NCBI RefSeq assembly: GCF_003991155.1
Contig: NZ_CP031293.1
Strand: one strand, 5' to 3'
Source: Escherichia coli
Lineage (GTDB): Bacteria; Pseudomonadota; Gammaproteobacteria; Enterobacterales; Enterobacteriaceae
DNA length: 64,000 nt
This document shows, one piece after another, positions 29,589 to 63,110 of the stretch. The notes under the pieces are model-generated. The model ran no database searches. It saw only the letters and a program-made list of their open reading frames with translations, and was not told the DNA's origin. Within the stretch, counting starts at the first letter, position 1. Every line of letters starts with the position of its first letter. A program made the position numbers and the translations under genes.

Positions 29589-31000
29589 CCTTTCCTCGCT
29601 TCTTCGTACGCTGCCAGCGTTCGCAGCCTTGCCTCTTTGTGATCAACTATCGGTTGCGGATAATCCAGCGTCACACCTGCTTTCTGCGCCCACTTCCACG
29701 GCTCATGCACCACTTTCCCTGGCACATCGCGCAGCTCCGGGAGCCACTGGCGGATAAATTCGCCTTCGCGGTCAAATTTCTCACCCTGAGTTGTCGGGTT
29801 GAAAATACGAAAATACGGCGCTGCATCGGTTCCGGTTGAAGCGGCCCACTGCCAGCCACCGTTATTGGCTGCCAAATCACCATCAATCAGCTGCGACATG
29901 AAATATCGCTCACCTTCGCGCCAGTCGATCAATAAATCTTTCACCAAAAAACTGGCTGTAATCATCCGTAGCCGGTTATGCATCCAGCCAGTGCTGTTAA
30001 GCTGACGCATGGCAGCATCAACAATCGGGTATCCCGTTTTGCCTTCCTGCCAGGCCTTTAAATGCGCGGAATTGCTCTGCCACTGCACGCGGTCGGTCCA
30101 GACAATAAACGGACGATGTTTACACAGCGAGGGGTAATACGTTATCAGATGACGGTAAAACTCGCGCCAGATCAGCTCATTAAGCCAGATACTACCGGCC
30201 CCACCGTCCAGCGCCTGCGGCTGTTCCGCCAACAGGCGATGCAAACACTGGCGAGGCGATAACCCGCCCGTTGCCAGGCTGGCGGACAAACGGCTGGTGC
30301 CTTCTACCGCAGGGAAATCTCGCTGTTGCTCATACTCTCCGGCACCGTTCTGGCAAAACTGGCGTAATTGCGCAATCGCCGCTTTCTCTTCCACCGGGAA
30401 ATGCGCAGTATCGAAAGGCTGACGAGGATAATTCAGCGTAATGGATGGCGCGGGCTTTATCGATCCGCTACTACGAACTTTTGGTGCAGCGACGCACTCC
30501 GGCATCCCTTCCCGCAGCCGTTTCAGCCAGGCATTTTGAAAAGGCGTAAAGACTTTGTACATCTCATGATTGCCAGTCATCACCGCCCCCGGCGGCAGGA
30601 TCACGCTGTCGTCAAATCCTTCACACACCACGTTACGCAGCGTTCTCTCAACCTGCACATCCCGCGCCCGCTCATTCACCTCATACTGATAGTTATAAAA
30701 CAGATGGGTAACACGATTTTCCGCGCACACCTGTTTAACTATTTCGACGCTGGCGGCAAAGTCATCCACTTCATGAAACAGTAAAGGAATGCCTTTTTCC
30801 GCCAGCGCAATTTGTAGCCCATTCAGTTGAGCATTGATAAGTTCAGCCTGACGCGGCGACATGTTATGCGCCGCCCACTGGCGTGGTGTAGCGATATACA
30901 ACGCCAGCACGCGCGCAGACGAATTGCGGCAGGCGGCAGCCAGCGCGAGATTATCATGCTGACGTAAATCCTGGCGAAACCAGACCAGATGGGTAGTCAT
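29582..31000 (-). CDS. phr: Deoxyribodipyrimidine photolyase
   Basis: 472-aa ORF MTTHLVWFRQDLRQHDNLALAAAC... Confidence 0.93.
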   Translation of the reverse strand: MTTHLVWFRQDLRQHDNLALAAACRNSSARVLALYIATPRQWAAHNMSPRQAELINAQLNGLQIALAEKGIPLLFHEVDDFAASVEIVKQVCAENRVTHLFYNYQYEVNERARDVQVERTLRNVVCEGFDDSVILPPGAVMTGNHEMYKVFTPFQNAWLKRLREGMPECVAAPKVRSSGSIKPAPSITLNYPRQPFDTAHFPVEEKAAIAQLRQFCQNGAGEYEQQRDFPAVEGTSRLSASLATGGLSPRQCLHRLLAEQPQALDGGAGSIWLNELIWREFYRHLITYYPSLCKHRPFIVWTDRVQWQSNSAHLKAWQEGKTGYPIVDAAMRQLNSTGWMHNRLRMITASFLVKDLLIDWREGERYFMSQLIDGDLAANNGGWQWAASTGTDAAPYFRIFNPTTQGEKFDREGEFIRQWLPELRDVPGKVVHEPWKWAQKAGVTLDYPQPIVDHKEARLRTLAAYEEARKGA

Positions 31001-31506
31001 AAAACTCCTGAATGGCGCAAGTTAATCACACGCGGCCAAAGTTCGAAATAACGCTGCCCTGAAAGCCAGGCGTCAGGATAAAGCGCCATATAGTGTTTGA
31101 TACGCATCAGCGGCGCAAGAAGCGGTTGCTCGCCACCGCGATAACTGTCGATAAGCGCCGCCAGCTGCTGGCGTTCTGTGGAATCAATATGAGGGCGAAA
31201 ATAACCCTGAACGTGCATCAAAACATTGGTGTGGTCACGTCGGTTGGCGGGGTGAGAAAGCAAAACAACTACGCGTTGGCGGTACTGGTTGTAATAGTCA
31301 TCCAGATTTTGCCACTGGTGAATATCAGCCACGAACGGGCCAAGTTTGCGGTACTCGGGCTGGGAATGGGCCAGAAAGACGAGTTTATAGCGGCTGTGAT
31401 AATCGTTGAGTGCCCCGCGCGTTAGTCCTCGATCTTTGAGATTGTGTAACTCATGCAAAGCAAAAATGCGGATAAGGGTGCTGTCATCAAAAAGTTGTTG
31501 ATTCAT
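30997..31506 (-). CDS. ybgA: DUF1722-family protein
   Basis: 169-aa ORF overlapping the phr start by 4 nt. Confidence 0.85.
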   Translation of the reverse strand: MNQQLFDDSTLIRIFALHELHNLKDRGLTRGALNDYHSRYKLVFLAHSQPEYRKLGPFVADIHQWQNLDDYYNQYRQRVVVLLSHPANRRDHTNVLMHVQGYFRPHIDSTERQQLAALIDSYRGGEQPLLAPLMRIKHYMALYPDAWLSGQRYFELWPRVINLRHSGVL

Positions 31507-31544
31507 TACTGCTCCTGAACGGTTTACAGGAGTAAGTGTAGACG

Positions 31545-31584
31545 CCGAAAAAAGAAAACCGCCAGCGTTTCCACCGGCGGTTTT
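31545..31584 (-). terminator. Intrinsic terminator downstream of ybfA
   Basis: Stem AAAACCGCC/GGCGGTTTT followed by a U-run on the minus strand. Confidence 0.55.
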
Positions 31585-31606
31585 CTTTAAACGTCATGTT
31601 TGGCAA

Positions 31607-31813
31607 TCAGTAAAAATCACCGGTTGCCTTTTCGGCCTGATCCATCCACACCGGTTTATCGCTGGTTTTCGACCAGACGCGGTGCAGGTAGCTGTAAAAG
31701 CGGGCGCGGTCTTTCCAGAAAAGCATGAAAGGCAGCGCCAGAACGCCCGCTGCAACCGCATAAGTACGGCGTAAAAAGATAAGCCATGCAGGATATTCTC
31801 TGTAGAGTTCCAT
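31607..31813 (-). CDS. ybfA: Small membrane protein (DUF2517)
   Basis: 68-aa [36 protein letters not shown]... Confidence 0.8.
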
Positions 31814-42685: not shown

Positions 42686-44001
42686 GTCAGGCTAAATCGA
42701 ACAAAATGGGCGTCGTTCAGTTAACCATACTGACGATGGTCAACATGATGGGCTCCGGTATCATCATGCTGCCGACAAAGCTTGCCGAAGTTGGGACAAT
42801 CTCAATAATCTCCTGGTTGGTGACTGCCGTAGGCTCAATGGCGCTGGCATGGGCATTCGCAAAATGCGGCATGTTCAGCCGTAAATCAGGCGGTATGGGC
42901 GGTTATGCGGAGTATGCTTTCGGTAAATCAGGGAACTTTATGGCGAACTACACCTACGGTGTCTCGCTGCTGATTGCTAACGTCGCGATTGCTATTTCGG
43001 CGGTTGGTTACGGCACCGAACTGCTCGGCGCGAGTTTGTCGCCAGTGCAGATTGGTCTTGCGACCATCGGAGTGCTGTGGATTTGTACCGTGGCTAACTT
43101 TGGTGGTGCGCGCATTACCGGGCAAATCAGTAGCATTACTGTGTGGGGGGTCATTATTCCGGTCGTCGGTCTGTGCATTATCGGCTGGTTCTGGTTTAGC
43201 CCGACGCTATACGCTAACTCATGGAACCCGCACCATGTGCCGTTCTTTAGCGCTGTAGGTTCTTCCATCGCTATGACGTTGTGGGCTTTCCTTGGTCTGG
43301 AGTCAGCCTGTGCCAACGCCGAAGTAGTGGAAAACCCGGAACGTAACGTGCCAATAGCAGTCCTTGGCGGTACGTTAGGTGCGGCGGTGATTTATATCGT
43401 CTCCACCAACGTGATTGCCGGGATTGTGCCAAATATGGAGCTGGCAAATTCAACGGCACCATTTGGCCTGGCCTTCGCACAGATGTTCACACCAGAAGTG
43501 GGTAAAGTCATTATGGCGCTGATGGTGATGTCCTGCTGCGGTTCACTGCTTGGCTGGCAGTTCACCATTGCCCAGGTGTTTAAATCTTCATCTGATGAAG
43601 GCTACTTCCCTAAAATTTTCTCCCGTGTAACCAAAGTGGATGCACCGGTTCAGGGAATGTTGACCATTGTGATTATTCAGAGTGGATTGGCACTGATGAC
43701 CATTAGCCCGTCACTGAACAGCCAGTTCAACGTGCTGGTTAACCTGGCCGTGGTGACCAATATCATCCCGTATATTCTGTCGATGGCAGCATTAGTTATT
43801 ATTCAGCAGGTCGCCAATGTGCCACCGTCAAAAGCGAAAGTAGCAAACTTTGTTGCCTTTGTTGGTGCGATGTACAGTTTCTATGCGCTGTACTCATCCG
43901 GGGAAGAAGCCATGCTGTACGGTTCCATCGTGACCTTCCTTGGTTGGACACTGTATGGTCTGGTATCTCCACGCTTTGAACTGAAAAATAAACACGGTTA
44001 A
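42682..44001 (+). CDS. potE: Putrescine-ornithine antiporter
   Basis: 439-aa APC-family transporter; 4-nt overlap with speF. Confidence 0.95.
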   Translation: MSQAKSNKMGVVQLTILTMVNMMGSGIIMLPTKLAEVGTISIISWLVTAVGSMALAWAFAKCGMFSRKSGGMGGYAEYAFGKSGNFMANYTYGVSLLIANVAIAISAVGYGTELLGASLSPVQIGLATIGVLWICTVANFGGARITGQISSITVWGVIIPVVGLCIIGWFWFSPTLYANSWNPHHVPFFSAVGSSIAMTLWAFLGLESACANAEVVENPERNVPIAVLGGTLGAAVIYIVSTNVIAGIVPNMELANSTAPFGLAFAQMFTPEVGKVIMALMVMSCCGSLLGWQFTIAQVFKSSSDEGYFPKIFSRVTKVDAPVQGMLTIVIIQSGLALMTISPSLNSQFNVLVNLAVVTNIIPYILSMAALVIIQQVANVPPSKAKVANFVAFVGAMYSFYALYSSGEEAMLYGSIVTFLGWTLYGLVSPRFELKNKHG

Positions 44002-44012
44002 TAAAGCAAAGT

Positions 44013-44046
44013 AAAAAAGGGCGATCTTCTGACCGCCCTTTTTCTT
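44013..44046. terminator. Bidirectional intrinsic terminator between convergent potE and pgm
   Basis: A-run, stem AAGGGCG/CGCCCTT, T-run. Confidence 0.65.
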
Positions 44047-44057
44047 ATTAAATGTGT

Positions 44058-45698
44058 TTACGCGTTTTTCAGAACTTCGCTAACAATCTCAACCGCTTCT
44101 TTCTCGATCTGCTTGCGATGTTCTTCACCGAGGAAGCTTTCGCAGTAGATCTTATATGCGTCTTCCGTGCCTGACGGACGCGCGGCGAACCAGCCGTTGT
44201 CAGTCATCACTTTCAGACCGCCAATAGAAGCACCGTTGCCAGGCGCAGCGGTCAGGCGCGCGGTGATCGGGTCACCTGCCAGGGTGCTGGCGCTCACCAT
44301 TTCCGGAGACAGCTTAGACAGCGCCGCTTTTTGTGCGGAAGTCGCAGCTGCCTGCAAACGGTTGTAGCTCGGCGCACCAAAGCGTTTTGCCAGTTCGTTG
44401 TAGTGTTCCTGCGGGTTCTTACCGGTGACAGCGGTGATTTCCGCCGCCAGCAGACACATAATGATGCCGTCTTTGTCGGTGGACCACGGCGTGCCGTCGA
44501 AACGCAGGAAGGAAGCCCCTGCGCTCTCTTCGCCGCCAAAGCCGAAGCTGCCGTCGAACAGGCCATCAACAAACCATTTGAAGCCTACCGGCACTTCCAC
44601 CAGCCTGCGGCCCAAATCATTGACCACACGGTCGATCATCGCAGAAGAAACCAGCGTTTTACCAACGGCAACATCTTTGCCCCACTGCGGACGATGCTGG
44701 AACAGGTAATTGATCGCCACCGCCAGGTAGTGGTTCGGATTCATCAAACCTGCCGGAGTGACGATACCGTGACGGTCATAATCCGGGTCGTTAGCAAACG
44801 CCAGATCGAACTTATCACGCAGTGCCAGCAGACCCGCCATCGCACACTCGGAGGAGCAGTCCATACGGATCGCGCCGTCTTTATCGAGGTGCATAAAGCG
44901 GAAGGTTTGATCGACCTGATCGTTAACGATGGTCAGGTTAAGGTTGTAATACTCGCCAATACGCTTCCAGTATTCGATACCGGAACCGCCCAGCGGATCA
45001 ACGCCCAGCGTCAGGCCCGCTTTCTGAATCGCCGCCATATCAACGATATCGGCCAGACCTTCCACAAACGGCTGCACCAGATCCTGCTCTTTCACATGAC
45101 CGGATGCCATCGCTTCGTCGAGGGAGATACGCTTCACGCCTTTCAGGCCATCGGCCAGCAGTGCGTTGGCACGATCTTCCACCACTTTAGTGACGTTGGT
45201 ATCAGCCGGGCCACCATTTGGCGGATTGTACTTGATACCACCATCTTCCGGCGGGTTATGGGACGGTGTAATCACGATACCGTCTGCCAGTGGGCCACCT
45301 TTTTTATTGTGAACCAGGATGGCATTGGAAACGGCAGGCGTCGGAGTGAAGCCATTGTTTTCCTGCACAATAACATCAACGCCGTTCGCTGCCAGCACTT
45401 CCAGAACGGAAATGAACGCAGGTTCGGACAGGGCGTGAGTATCTTTACCCACATAGCAAGGGCCAGTGATGCCGTTTTTCGCACGTTCTTCAGCAATTGC
45501 CTGAGCGATCGCCAGAATATGCGGCTCGTTAAAGCTGTGGCGCGCTGCACTGCCACGGTGACCGGAAGTACCGAATTTCACCGCGTGCTCCGCATTCCCT
45601 GCTTCTGGTTTCAGTACATAATATTGCGCCGTCAGTTGGGCGACGTTAATCAAATCACTCTGTTGTGCAGGTTGGCCTGCACGGTTGTGGATAGCCAT
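44058..45698 (-). CDS. pgm: Phosphoglucomutase
   Basis: 546 aa from [22 protein letters not shown]...; active-site TSGHRGS motif. Confidence 0.93.
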
Positions 45699-59546: not shown

Positions 59547-59552
59547 ATAGCA

Positions 59553-59585
59553 ACCACGCCTCAGGGCGTGGTTTCTTATTTTTAG
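59553..59585 (+). terminator. Intrinsic terminator after nagD
   Basis: Stem ACCACGCC/GGCGTGGT followed by a T-run. Confidence 0.65.
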
Positions 59586-59802
59586 CCATCATTAAAATCA
59601 TCCTATTCAATAAAACCCGCCCAAAATTATCGATCCATCAATAAATACGTCACCACACCCTATCCTTTTTCACAAATCAGCAATCGCCATTACGTTTTTT
59701 ATTTTTCCACCGCCAAATCGCTTGCGCACAGTGCTACTTTGCGGCATTTTTTTAAACAAGCAAACACAACAAGCAACAAATACCAGGTTAACGGAGAAGG
59801 TT

Positions 59803-61467
59803 ATGTGTTCAATTTTTGGCGTATTCGATATCAAAACAGACGCAGTTGAGCTGCGGAAGAAAGCCCTCGAGCTGTCACGCCTGATGCGTCATCGTGGCCC
59901 GGACTGGTCCGGTATTTATGCCAGCGATAACGCCATTCTCGCTCACGAACGTCTGTCAATTGTTGACGTTAACGCAGGGGCGCAACCTCTCTACAACCAA
60001 CAAAAAACCCACGTACTGGCGGTAAACGGTGAAATCTACAACCACCAGGCACTGCGCGCCGAATATGGCGATCGTTATCAGTTCCAGACCGGATCTGACT
60101 GCGAAGTGATCCTCGCGCTGTATCAGGAAAAAGGGCCGGAATTTCTTGACGACTTGCAGGGCATGTTTGCCTTTGCCCTGTACGACAGCGAAAAAGATGC
60201 CTACCTGATTGGTCGCGACCATCTGGGGATCATCCCACTGTATATGGGCTATGACGAACATGGTCAGCTGTATGTGGCCTCAGAAATGAAAGCCCTGGTG
60301 CCGGTATGCCGCACGATTAAAGAGTTCCCGGCGGGGAGCTATTTGTGGAGTCAGGACGGCGAAATCCGTTCTTATTATCATCGCGACTGGTTCGACTACG
60401 ATGCGGTGAAAGATAACGTGACCGACAAAAACGAGCTGCGTCAGGCACTGGAAGATTCCGTTAAAAGCCATCTGATGTCTGATGTGCCTTACGGTGTGCT
60501 GCTATCTGGTGGCCTGGATTCCTCAATCATTTCCGCTATCACCAAGAAATACGCCGCCCGTCGCGTGGAAGATCAGGAACGCTCTGAAGCCTGGTGGCCG
60601 CAGCTGCACTCCTTTGCTGTAGGTCTGCCGGGTTCACCGGATCTGAAGGCAGCCCAGGAAGTGGCAAACCATCTGGGCACTGTGCATCATGAAATTCACT
60701 TCACTGTACAGGAAGGTCTGGACGCCATCCGCGACGTGATTTACCACATCGAAACCTATGATGTGACCACTATTCGCGCTTCAACACCGATGTATTTAAT
60801 GTCGCGTAAGATCAAGGCGATGGGCATTAAAATGGTGCTGTCCGGTGAAGGATCTGATGAAGTGTTTGGCGGTTATCTATACTTCCACAAAGCGCCGAAT
60901 GCCAAAGAACTGCATGAAGAGACGGTGCGTAAACTGCTGGCCCTGCATATGTATGACTGCGCGCGTGCCAACAAAGCGATGTCAGCCTGGGGCGTGGAAG
61001 CACGCGTTCCGTTCCTCGACAAAAAATTCCTTGATGTAGCGATGCGCATTAACCCACAGGATAAAATGTGCGGTAACGGCAAAATGGAAAAACACATCCT
61101 GCGTGAATGTTTTGAAGCGTATCTGCCTGCAAGCGTGGCCTGGCGGCAGAAAGAGCAGTTCTCCGATGGCGTCGGTTACAGTTGGATCGACACCCTGAAA
61201 GAAGTGGCGGCGCAGCAGGTTTCTGATCAACAGCTGGAAACTGCCCGCTTCCGCTTCCCGTACAACACGCCGACGTCCAAAGAAGCGTATCTGTACCGCG
61301 AGATCTTTGAAGAACTGTTCCCGCTTCCGAGCGCCGCTGAGTGCGTGCCGGGCGGTCCTTCCGTCGCGTGTTCTTCCGCTAAAGCGATCGAATGGGATGA
61401 AGCGTTCAAAAAAATGGACGATCCATCTGGTCGTGCGGTTGGTGTTCACCAGTCGGCGTATAAGTAA
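59803..61467 (+). CDS. asnB: Asparagine synthetase B (glutamine-hydrolysing)
   Basis: 554 aa from MCSIFGVFDIKTD... (N-terminal Cys nucleophile); upstream ORF extension rejected; GGAGAAGG RBS. Confidence 0.95.
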   Translation: MCSIFGVFDIKTDAVELRKKALELSRLMRHRGPDWSGIYASDNAILAHERLSIVDVNAGAQPLYNQQKTHVLAVNGEIYNHQALRAEYGDRYQFQTGSDCEVILALYQEKGPEFLDDLQGMFAFALYDSEKDAYLIGRDHLGIIPLYMGYDEHGQLYVASEMKALVPVCRTIKEFPAGSYLWSQDGEIRSYYHRDWFDYDAVKDNVTDKNELRQALEDSVKSHLMSDVPYGVLLSGGLDSSIISAITKKYAARRVEDQERSEAWWPQLHSFAVGLPGSPDLKAAQEVANHLGTVHHEIHFTVQEGLDAIRDVIYHIETYDVTTIRASTPMYLMSRKIKAMGIKMVLSGEGSDEVFGGYLYFHKAPNAKELHEETVRKLLALHMYDCARANKAMSAWGVEARVPFLDKKFLDVAMRINPQDKMCGNGKMEKHILRECFEAYLPASVAWRQKEQFSDGVGYSWIDTLKEVAAQQVSDQQLETARFRFPYNTPTSKEAYLYREIFEELFPLPSAAECVPGGPSVACSSAKAIEWDEAFKKMDDPSGRAVGVHQSAYK

Positions 61468-61475
61468 GAAATGCG

Positions 61476-61505
61476 AAACAGCCCCGGTAAAATCCGGGGC
61501 TGTTT
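61476..61505. terminator. Bidirectional terminator between asnB and the convergent 145-aa gene
   Basis: Stem AACAGCCCCGG/CCGGGGCTGTT. Confidence 0.55.
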
Positions 61506-61508
61506 CAG

Positions 61509-61946
61509 TTATTGAGGTGCTTGTTGATTCTGATATGCAGTAAGGAAATGTTCCGGGTTTGCCACATCACTGTTTGACAACTCATTACTGTAGGCCACCG
61601 ACCAGGTCGCCTGCTCATCCGGAATATGCAGGCTGCCATTCCCCTCTTTCAGGCGTAATAACTCAAAAGATTTGCCCTTAATTACGGCGGTATAGGATTT
61701 TTCACCTTCCTGTAATGCTTTCACTTTACAGCGAAAAATCTGGCCATCGATGTCATTATCAACATGCGATACCTGAATGAGGGCTTCATTAGAGGCTTTC
61801 GGCCCTATCCGCATCATCCACACCACAGCGCCTTCCTGCCCACGATAGCCAAAAACATATTTACCGATTTCCGGTTTGACCGTATCGGCAAACGCAGATT
61901 GCATAAGTAATAACGCACCCATCAGCGCCGTCATAAAACGCAGCAT
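61509..61946 (-). CDS. Hypothetical secreted protein (145 aa, cleavable signal peptide)
   Basis: ATG with GAGGGAA RBS; N-terminus MLRFMTALMGALLLMQSAFA-DTVKPE...; no family recognised. Confidence 0.65.
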   Translation of the reverse strand: MLRFMTALMGALLLMQSAFADTVKPEIGKYVFGYRGQEGAVVWMMRIGPKASNEALIQVSHVDNDIDGQIFRCKVKALQEGEKSYTAVIKGKSFELLRLKEGNGSLHIPDEQATWSVAYSNELSNSDVANPEHFLTAYQNQQAPQ

Positions 61947-62209
61947 AGTATTCCCTCAATAAATCGCCTGAAGTGGTAGCAGAGATGCAGGCGTAGCGAT
62001 CCCTGCCCTGTCCTGTTGCAACGGGCCAGTATTTCATAGATTAATTTCCCACCACTATTGTTGAATTCCGAATTTCATCCTGTATGACAAAAGAATGGCT
62101 GTAGGGTGGGGAAAAAACACAAAGTAAACAATAATTGACGAATATAGCGCCACGCTGTTCGCAACCTAACCAAACAGTCACTTTCGAGCAATTTTCCTTG
62201 AAAAAGAGG

Positions 62210-62246
62210 TTGACGCTGCAAGGCTCTATACGCATAATGCGCCCCG
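62210..62246 (+). promoter_or_regulatory. tRNA operon promoter (-35 TTGACG, 17-bp spacer, -10 CATAAT, GC-rich discriminator)
   Basis: Read from the sequence; the GCGCCCCGC discriminator is typical of stringently controlled stable-RNA promoters. Confidence 0.55.
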
Positions 62247-62278: not shown

Positions 62279-62355
62279 GGCTACGTAGCTCAGTTGGTTA
62301 GAGCACATCACTCATAATGATGGGGTCACAGGTTCGAATCCCGTCGTAGCCACCA
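62279..62355 (+). tRNA. metT: tRNA-Met (elongator, CAU)
   Basis: GGCTACGTAGCTCAGTTGGTTAGAGC...CTCATAA...GGTTCGAATCC...CCA cloverleaf. Confidence 0.93.
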
Positions 62356-62363
62356 TCTTTTTT

Positions 62364-62448
62364 GCGGGAGTGGCGAAATTGGTAGACGCACCAGATTTAG
62401 GTTCTGGCGCCGCAAGGTGTGCGAGTTCAAGTCTCGCCTCCCGCACCA
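62364..62448 (+). tRNA. leuW: tRNA-Leu (UAG), long variable arm
   Basis: GCGGGAGTGGCGAAATTGGTAGACGC...TTTAGGT...GAGTTCAAGTCTCGCCTCCCGCACCA. Confidence 0.9.
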
Positions 62449-62471
62449 TTCACCAGAAAGCGTTGTACGGA

Positions 62472-62546
62472 TGGGGTATCGCCAAGCGGTAAGGCACCGG
62501 TTTTTGATACCGGCATTCCCTGGTTCGAATCCAGGTACCCCAGCCA
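62472..62546 (+). tRNA. glnU: tRNA-Gln (UUG)
   Basis: TGGGGTATCGCCAAGCGGTAAGGCACCGGTTTTTGATACCGG...CCA. Confidence 0.92.
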
Positions 62547-62580
62547 TATTCTTCGAGTAAGCGGTTCACCGCCCGGTTAT

Positions 62581-62655
62581 TGGGGTATCGCCAAGCGGTA
62601 AGGCACCGGTTTTTGATACCGGCATTCCCTGGTTCGAATCCAGGTACCCCAGCCA
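62581..62655 (+). tRNA. glnW: tRNA-Gln (UUG), identical copy
   Basis: Same sequence as the 62472-62546 copy. Confidence 0.92.
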
Positions 62656-62670
62656 TCGAAGAAACAATCT

Positions 62671-62747
62671 GGCTACGTAGCTCAGTTGGTTAGAGCACAT
62701 CACTCATAATGATGGGGTCACAGGTTCGAATCCCGTCGTAGCCACCA
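62671..62747 (+). tRNA. metU: tRNA-Met (elongator, CAU), second copy
   Basis: Identical to the 62279-62355 copy. Confidence 0.93.
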
Positions 62748-62795
62748 AATTCTGAATGTGTCGAATGTGTTCGGCAAATTCACAAACCAATTTGT

Positions 62796-62870
62796 TGGGG
62801 TATCGCCAAGCGGTAAGGCACCGGATTCTGATTCCGGCATTCCGAGGTTCGAATCCTCGTACCCCAGCCA
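62796..62870 (+). tRNA. glnV: tRNA-Gln (CUG)
   Basis: TGGGGTATCGCCAAGCGGTAAGGCACCGGATTCTGATTCCGG...CCA. Confidence 0.92.
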
Positions 62871-62907
62871 ATTTATTCAAGACGCTTACCTTGTAAGTGC
62901 ACCCAGT

Positions 62908-62982
62908 TGGGGTATCGCCAAGCGGTAAGGCACCGGATTCTGATTCCGGCATTCCGAGGTTCGAATCCTCGTACCCCAGCCA
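62908..62982 (+). tRNA. glnX: tRNA-Gln (CUG), second copy
   Basis: Identical to the 62796-62870 copy. Confidence 0.92.
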
Positions 62983-62985
62983 CAT

Positions 62986-63012
62986 TAAAAAAGCTCGCTT
63001 CGGCGAGCTTTT
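62986..63012 (+). terminator. Intrinsic terminator of the tRNA operon
   Basis: Stem AAAAGCTCGC/GCGAGCTTTT followed by a T-run. Confidence 0.7.
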
Positions 63013-63027
63013 TGCTTTTCTGCGTAT

Positions 63028-63110
63028 ATTCAATGTCGAATGCGATGTTGACACGTCTTATCCTTCAAAGTCGGATGCGACGCTGACGCGTCTTATCCGA
63101 CCTACGGTTG
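63028..63110. repeat. REP/BIME-like palindromic units
   Basis: CGAATGCGATGTTGACACGTCTTATCC and GTCGGATGCGACGCTGACGCGTCTTATCCGACCTAC resemble REP consensus. Confidence 0.5.

Follow-up and report, generated by a model that had tools for sequence, protein, structure and literature searches.

An ancestral gene between asnB and the metT tRNA operon of Escherichia coli, deleted in K-12, and its predicted periplasmic barrel protein

The window, which is the whole stretch of 64,000 nucleotides of Escherichia coli DNA (contig NZ_CP031293.1) analyzed here, contains an open reading frame (ORF) of 145 codons between asnB and the metT tRNA operon. The asnB–metT spacer is about 811-851 bp long in the window and 379 bp in K-12 MG1655, where it holds no annotated gene. 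This raises the questions which of the two states is ancestral, whether the ORF is a functional gene, and what its product would do. The earlier note on this DNA had given the K-12 spacer, correctly, as a few hundred bp without a gene, and had read the difference as a probable insertion of roughly 450 bp at a tRNA integration hotspot. The gene is already known in RefSeq and UniProt as an uncharacterized protein: it is labelled hypothetical protein WP_000943488.1 (annotated so in strain 2016C-3878, whose asnB–metT spacer is 100% identical to that of the window), and the UniProt entry, present in AFDB, is A0A376LJX6. Literature searches by the RefSeq accession and by asnB plus metT found no paper on the ORF. 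New here are the polarity of the polymorphism, a deletion in K-12, its exact junction, the evidence for purifying selection, the wide spread of the family, the barrel prediction and the sensor-type fusions.

The gene order at the end of the window is nagD – asnB (+) – ORF (−) – seven-tRNA operon (+) – ubiF (−), the ORF being convergent with asnB and divergent from the tRNA operon (Table 1). The elements of a well-formed gene which had been described before, i.e., 145 codons, an ATG and a GAGGGAA ribosome binding site (RBS), were all found, and the sequence TTGAGGGAATA at the RBS is kept from Escherichia to Pseudocitrobacter. A terminator hairpin common to the convergent asnB and ORF had also been claimed rightly: its arms (61475-61487 and 61494-61506) lie between the two stop codons, and a terminator scan scored it as a minus-strand terminator. 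The Rfam search of the spacer gave, tRNAs aside, only weak sub-threshold matches. REP-like palindromic units at 63034-63102, between the terminator of the tRNA operon (62987-63013) and ubiF, gave weak, sub-threshold matches to Rfam naRNA4 on both strands. The K-12 assembly NZ_CP010440.1 has six operon tRNAs compared to seven in the window, with one copy of tRNA-Gln(CUG) fewer. Recombination between the tandem glnV/glnX copies, or their collapse in the assembly, could account for this.

Table 1. Features of the asnB–metT region, in window coordinates.
Feature	Position	Strand	Remarks
asnB	59803-61467	+	stop at 61467
Bidirectional intrinsic terminator hairpin	61475-61506	both	perfect 13-bp stem, 6-nt loop
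ORF, CDS of the 145-aa precursor	61509-61946	−	ATG start, TAA stop; dN/dS, family, AF2
3' remnant of the ORF (29 codons + stop)	61509-61597	−	survives in K-12, BL21, O157:H7 and others
GGCCA microhomology, left copy	61593-61597		deletion endpoint
Segment missing from K-12-type genomes	61598-62028		431 bp
Predicted Sec/SPase I signal peptide, MLRFMTALMGALLLMQSAFA	61887-61946	−	codons 1-20; predicted cleavage before D21
Shine-Dalgarno sequence GAGGGAA	61951-61957	−	4 nt ahead of ATG
GGCCA microhomology, right copy	62024-62028		deletion endpoint
Upstream block, …AGGATGAAATTCGGAATTCAACAATAGTG…GGAAATT..TCTATGAAATACT	62028-62082	−	conserved across genera; retained in K-12
metT tRNA-operon promoter, divergent	62210-62238	+	TTGACG, 17-nt spacer, CATAAT; context only
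tRNA operon metT-leuW-glnU-glnW-metU-glnV-glnX	62279-62982	+	seven genes

When K-12 was aligned to the window, the match ran continuously from asnB through the terminator into the last 89 nt of the ORF (2 mismatches, 87/89 positions identical), jumped to 62024 and went on to metT. The missing segment spans codons 1-116 of the 145, the RBS and ~80 nt of upstream leader, and one copy of GGCCA is left in K-12. A tblastn search with the protein recovered the remnant (residues 117-145) separately in K-12-type chromosome records. Since K-12 retains the 3' end of the ORF and the gap is bounded by GGCCA, K-12 is a deletion derivative; the ORF is an ancestral resident of the locus, and about four fifths of all E. 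coli strains, with K-12 among them, have deleted 431 bp. The gene occupies the equivalent slot, in the order ubiF–tRNA array–gene–asnB, in E. albertii and E. marmotae and is present in all sampled sister Escherichia species. At the equivalent locus it was also found in assemblies labelled Salmonella enterica (some Salmonella; 89% identity) and in Pseudocitrobacter (70% identity), there alongside the identical seven-tRNA set.

Among 5,426 complete E. coli genomes, the 431-bp segment was carried by 985, always in a single chromosomal copy, and the exact K-12-type junction was present in 4,240, counted with a junction-centered 41-mer which carriers cannot match; by difference, about 201 genomes are in neither state. 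A presence/absence survey, as the earlier note had proposed, thus shows the gene to be absent from K-12 and most E. coli; the reading as an insertion is not supported. O25b:H4-ST131 is among the carriers, as are many extraintestinal isolates of avian and human origin. The junction is identical in K-12, O145 and strain 16843, the last with a left flank of the divergent type, and was found in O157:H7 by the 41-mer match; strain 33E has a second, further deletion. That one junction occurs in divergent backgrounds could mean that the deletion recurred or was spread by recombination, instead of having happened just once. The gene is dispensable, since ~80% of E. coli strains do without it.

Two readings that would deprive the ORF of its standing as an old, functional gene were weighed against these data. 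The ORF could be an islet of ~450 bp lately inserted beside the tRNA array, an integration hotspot, in the lineage of this strain. This would agree with the absence of the gene from K-12 and most E. coli, with the adjoining seven-tRNA operon, and with the three different loci at which family members are found on the chromosomes of other Enterobacterales, since two of these loci adjoin tRNA-Met genes. It is nevertheless highly improbable, for the gap in K-12 begins inside the ORF and outgroup species and genera carry the gene at this locus. The segment contains no integrase or other mobility gene and no second ORF, the junction does not involve the tRNA genes themselves, and no att-like or long direct or inverted terminal repeats flank it. 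Direct repeats, for which the earlier note had proposed a search, were found at chance level and short only, GGCCA being the microhomology of the deletion. There were no matches to the gene in phages and no copies on genuine mobilizable plasmids; the matches in the plasmid collection were chromosome-sized or non-mobilizable E. coli records and one 508-kb Xanthomonas replicon. Of the marks of an integrated element, neither an integrase nor att repeats with a tRNA 3' end were seen, and the 'empty' site of K-12 is not intact but holds 89 nt of the gene.

The ORF could also be decaying or non-functional, either a gene on its way to becoming a pseudogene or a frame left open by chance in the long spacer. 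The loss of the gene by ~80% of E. coli would fit, as would the lack of a recognizable σ70 promoter and the frameshifted alleles on record (a few carriers, such as NMBU-W13E19, flagged 'frameshifted' by PGAP, as well as P0033, P0040 and P0043). Against this stand dN/dS values (Nei-Gojobori) of 0.05 compared to a phylogroup-B2-type allele (14 differences are synonymous, 3 non-synonymous) and of 0.07-0.09 compared to the Salmonella orthologue (dS ≈ 0.75), a reading frame which stays intact as far as Pseudocitrobacter and further afield, 42 columns invariant across 17 homologues, the conserved RBS and a confident fold prediction, so that decay or chance has very little probability. The dN/dS values, the 212 clusters of the family and the confident AlphaFold2 (AF2) model, both described below, make the ORF far more than a chance ORF; judged from its sequence evolution, it is a real, selectively maintained gene. 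Of the pseudogenization for which the earlier note wanted a check, some frameshifted alleles do exist, whereas the ORF itself is under purifying selection.

Upstream of the ORF, the ~55-nt block at 62028-62082 hardly varies between E. coli and Pseudocitrobacter and contains two ATGAAAT repeats, ~43 nt apart. Its place is between the divergent ORF and the metT promoter, at a distance of 125-180 bp upstream of the metT −35 box (62210-62215), and the endpoint of the K-12 deletion is its exact edge. The block may be the promoter or operator of the ORF, an upstream region of FIS/UP type of the tRNA promoter, or both; given its retention in the K-12 deletion and its distance from the metT −35 box, it may serve the tRNA promoter. 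The minus-strand promoter search did not find a consensus σ70 site for the ORF. Matches resembling σE and σ54 sites, seen by eye in 62020-62075, had the wrong spacing or were not conserved and were discarded.

The N-terminus of the product (MLRFMTALMGALLLMQSAFA, followed by DT) has the n/h/c layout of a signal peptide, with a single basic residue, a hydrophobic core of 12 residues and A at positions -3 and -1. S17-A18-F19-A20 is invariant in the 17 enterobacterial homologues, and there is no lipobox Cys; the signal peptide ending in AFA-DT which had been noted before is borne out by this. Cleavage would probably occur after SAFA and leave a mature protein of ~125 aa (13.9 kDa, pI 5.6, one Cys). 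The AF2 model has a low-confidence helix at residues 3-17.

AF2 was run on an alignment of 70 sequences and gave a mean pLDDT of 87.4 (> 90 over residues 31-140) and a pTM of 0.75. Eight strands were predicted (27-36, 41-47, 54-60, 69-77, 83-89, 92-100, 103-107 and 114-119), followed by a short helix and, at 131-142, by a C-terminal helix which is conserved. The predicted fold is an eight-stranded up-and-down β-barrel with a C-terminal helix as cap. A Foldseek search against the PDB gave no match at E ≤ 1e-3 and generic barrels only. Because the fold is predicted and no Foldseek PDB match is significant, inference of function from the fold is weak.

Homologues were collected in two ways. A word-indexed search yielded 48 homologues down to 56% identity, and an HMM search run exhaustively over 1.84 billion representatives yielded 212 clusters at E ≤ 1e-3 and 106 at E ≤ 1e-10. 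With clusters defined at 50% identity, the family thus comprises at least 212 clusters; it occurs in Proteobacteria and Bacteroidota, and nearly all members have 135-160 aa, an N-terminal signal sequence and an end-to-end alignment. The consensus of 70 sequences is RPEvGxYvkaYxGxEG–vW–R-GP–EaLvQ–GiDHxWD–Y–G–L–LyLP–Y–LS–nxEHFLTxYLxQ, with R46, E54, Q58, D63 and D67 as conserved polar residues. The ORF product itself has a full-length match to the family profile, the signal peptide and the C-terminal HFLT-Y-Q helix. In Pfam, the window protein had no match at E ≤ 10 and 70 relatives had none at E ≤ 0.001, and the protein matched nothing in NCBIfam, PADLOC or PHROGs, in agreement with the previous statement that no family was recognizable. 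The UniRef name of the Pseudocitrobacter homologue, 'DUF4367 domain-containing', was not reproduced by the Pfam scan.

Relatives in AFDB50 (TM 0.7-0.83, 25-48% identity) are all uncharacterized and come from Atlantibacter, Yersinia, Pantoea, Brenneria, Xanthomonas, Pseudomonas, Rhizobium, Pedobacter, Cytophaga and Myxococcus. The labels of some read lipoprotein or secreted protein, and the depositor of one chose 'Inhibitor of vertebrate lysozyme'. The gene is best described as belonging to a sequence family which is new, yet of a known kind (small periplasmic binding proteins with an eight-stranded barrel), and not as a categorically new system. In the enterobacterial clade, the loop between strands 3 and 4 reads D-N-D-I-D-G (codons 63-68; 61743-61760, minus strand), which fits the DxDxDG pattern of calcium-binding loops, and the wider family has (I/V)DHxWDG at this place. 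Metal binding at this loop is possible, judging by the motif.

No conserved gene neighbours were found across six contexts of distant family members, which fits a protein working alone. A 56%-identical homologue is flanked by amiC and mltA and has a tRNA-Met gene nearby (L005, 6001-7313); by its position, we take this tRNA gene to belong to the initiator cluster. Another with 54% identity lies between a gene for a TonB-dependent receptor and a PTS EIICB gene (L017, 5001-5429), presumably fhuE and ptsG, again by position. More distant members adjoin unrelated genes, and all appear monocistronic. The members at these other Enterobacterales loci are paralogous or translocated, so that the family relocates over evolutionary time without recognizable mobile-element genes.

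Several distant relatives (E 1e-14 to 1e-21) carry the domain fused to others, and its ligand or role in these may differ from that in the E. coli protein. P0118 combines TIR_2 (E 5e-24), a transmembrane helix (TM) at 159-187 and the domain of the ORF family; in P0077, a class III nucleotide cyclase (Guanylate_cyc, PF00211), a TM at 219-238 and a low-complexity linker precede it. The domain is tandemly duplicated in P0055, and P0135 has a SH3/Tudor-like N-terminal region, as assessed by eye. A response-regulator protein, P0099, has the domain at its C-terminus; its contig also encodes a HLH protein, and P0099 is taken to be fungal, given a similar architecture in the yeast Blastobotrys in AFDB. 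A class of ~270 aa adds a Cys-rich C-terminal region without a Pfam match. Like the extracytoplasmic sensor domains of single-pass signalling proteins, the domain thus stands after one TM, C-terminal to a class III cyclase or TIR, in these relatives, whereas the E. coli protein would be free in the periplasm, without membrane anchor or output domain, and no named sensor family was matched.

Since membrane proteins with a TIR or cyclase domain elsewhere carry it as their outward-facing, extracytoplasmic module, a binding mode of action is suggested for the domain, and the most likely role of the E. coli protein is that of a periplasmic binding protein. The reading as a whole, an ancestral, Sec-exported periplasmic barrel binding protein deleted in K-12, is considered probable. 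The gene would have been inherited vertically on the chromosome of the Escherichia/Salmonella/Pseudocitrobacter group. Its product would be exported by the Sec pathway, cut after SAFA and freed as a soluble periplasmic protein of ~14 kDa, and would fold into the eight-stranded up-and-down β-barrel capped by the conserved C-terminal helix (…HFLTxYxxQ). There it would act as a stand-alone binding or sequestering protein without an operon partner. The gene would have been lost from most E. coli lineages, among them K-12, via one 431-bp deletion bounded by microhomology.

Given a binding role, the target may be a peptidoglycan hydrolase or, slightly more likely, a small molecule, neither of them probable by itself, and the larger part of the probability is given to neither. 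As a special case of the binding reading, the protein may be a proteinaceous inhibitor of a peptidoglycan hydrolase in the periplasm (host c-type lysozyme, bacterial or phage muramidase, or lytic transglycosylase), with loops of the barrel inserted into the active-site cleft of the enzyme as in PliC/MliC, Neisseria ACP and Brucella PhiA. In Foldseek, PliC-St had the best target-normalized TM score (0.66). In the structure comparison list, the Ochrobactrum D-aminopeptidase barrel domain (9.3) was followed by Brucella PliC (8.9), Salmonella PliC (8.8), Brucella PhiA (7.9), Neisseria ACP (6.7) and E. coli MliC/YdhA (5.9), interspersed with unrelated eight-stranded barrels (outer-membrane proteins, avidins, the barrel of factor-H-binding protein and designed barrels). 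The gene is stand-alone, monocistronic and periplasmic by prediction, and mliC, pliC and ivy are usually stand-alone and monocistronic, too; it is kept in ExPEC lineages such as ST131, and the depositor's label of the one AFDB member mentioned above points the same way. The only match of the PDB sequence profile was Neisseria ACP (5my7), which is non-significant (E 0.69) and lies partly over the signal peptide, and no sign of an adhesin or inhibitor function as in ACP (5my7/6gq4) or PhiA (7dpy) was seen in the ORF product. With MliC/PliC (PF09864; 3oe3, 4mir, 3f6z, 2f09) the product would share the eight-stranded antiparallel barrel, as predicted, and export to the periplasm or outer membrane, as suggested by its Sec signal peptide. 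However, it is ~40 residues longer, has the extra conserved C-terminal helix, and lacks a disulfide (one Cys) and a lipobox. PF09864 was matched neither by any of 70 members scanned singly (E ≤ 0.1) nor by the window protein (E ≤ 10).

For a profile comparison, E. coli MliC (100% identical to 2f09 over residues 27-109), P. aeruginosa MliC and Brucella PliC (both from PDB alignments) were aligned as reference; hhalign gave a probability of 0.6%, with limited power due to the three reference sequences. The lysozyme-contacting motifs I-S-x-S-G-A-x-Y and W-x-K-G-x-x-A, invariant in these three, are absent from both the 70-sequence consensus and the window protein. Membership in MliC/PliC was rejected on these grounds, the common fold class notwithstanding, and Ivy (PF08816) was likewise rejected, as neither a profile match nor the CKPHDC loop nor an α/β sandwich was found. 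That cyclase and TIR proteins employ the domain as a sensor module is atypical of enzyme inhibitors as well, and an inhibitor of peptidoglycan hydrolases is accordingly judged unlikely. A calycin- or lipocalin-like protein which carries or senses a low-molecular-weight periplasmic ligand inside the barrel is a tentative possibility. Eight antiparallel strands followed by a helix are, in the prediction, the arrangement of lipocalins; an extracytoplasmic domain of cyclase and TIR proteins fits a ligand sensor, and the five conserved polar residues could line a binding site. On the other hand, no lipocalin or avidin signature or Pfam match was found, ~105 barrel residues are few for a lipocalin, and bacterial lipocalins and avidins scored below PliC. 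Rather doubtful is the furthest-reaching reading, that the family constitutes undescribed extracytoplasmic barrel binding domains which provide E. coli with a third type of periplasmic inhibitor of peptidoglycan hydrolases of hosts or competitors, independent of MliC and Ivy, or with a sensor or decoy for another envelope-targeting factor, kept in extraintestinal lineages such as ST131. If it were true, the loss from K-12 and most surveyed strains would explain the absence of study.

Whichever target a periplasmic binding protein of this kind may have, it is the presence of the seemingly strain-specific gene next to the tRNA genes that is ancestral, and K-12, the reference, is the mutant, which corrects a tempting misreading and gives an example of how a K-12-centered view hides conserved genes. 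The gene is a conserved hypothetical one, dispensable in most strains, and belongs to the small unstudied proteins, here predicted to be periplasmic, of clinically dominant E. coli (ST131). If a ligand were defined, this would provide an annotation for a new sensor domain and for proteins by the hundred.

Other differences to K-12 were seen elsewhere in the window. In the window, ybfA is followed directly by ybgA (30997-31813), and K-12 MG1655 has ~9.6 kb between these genes, made up of the RhsC element (rhsC, ybfB, a RHS fragment and ybfC) and ISAs1 transposase pseudogenes; in this indel it is K-12 which holds the extra, mobile-looking DNA. The potE/pgm spacer measures ~56 bp in the window (44001-44058) and ~2.5 kb in K-12, the extra DNA containing IS1A, a lipoprotein gene (presumably ybfP), a pseudogene of DUF2625 type and a fragment with a wHTH. 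The nagD–asnB spacer (59547-59802) has 256 bp compared to 396 bp in K-12 (L019, 4089-4484), and the glnS–chiP spacer 439 bp compared to 576 bp. Both are ~140 bp longer in K-12, probably due to small repeat elements present in K-12 only.
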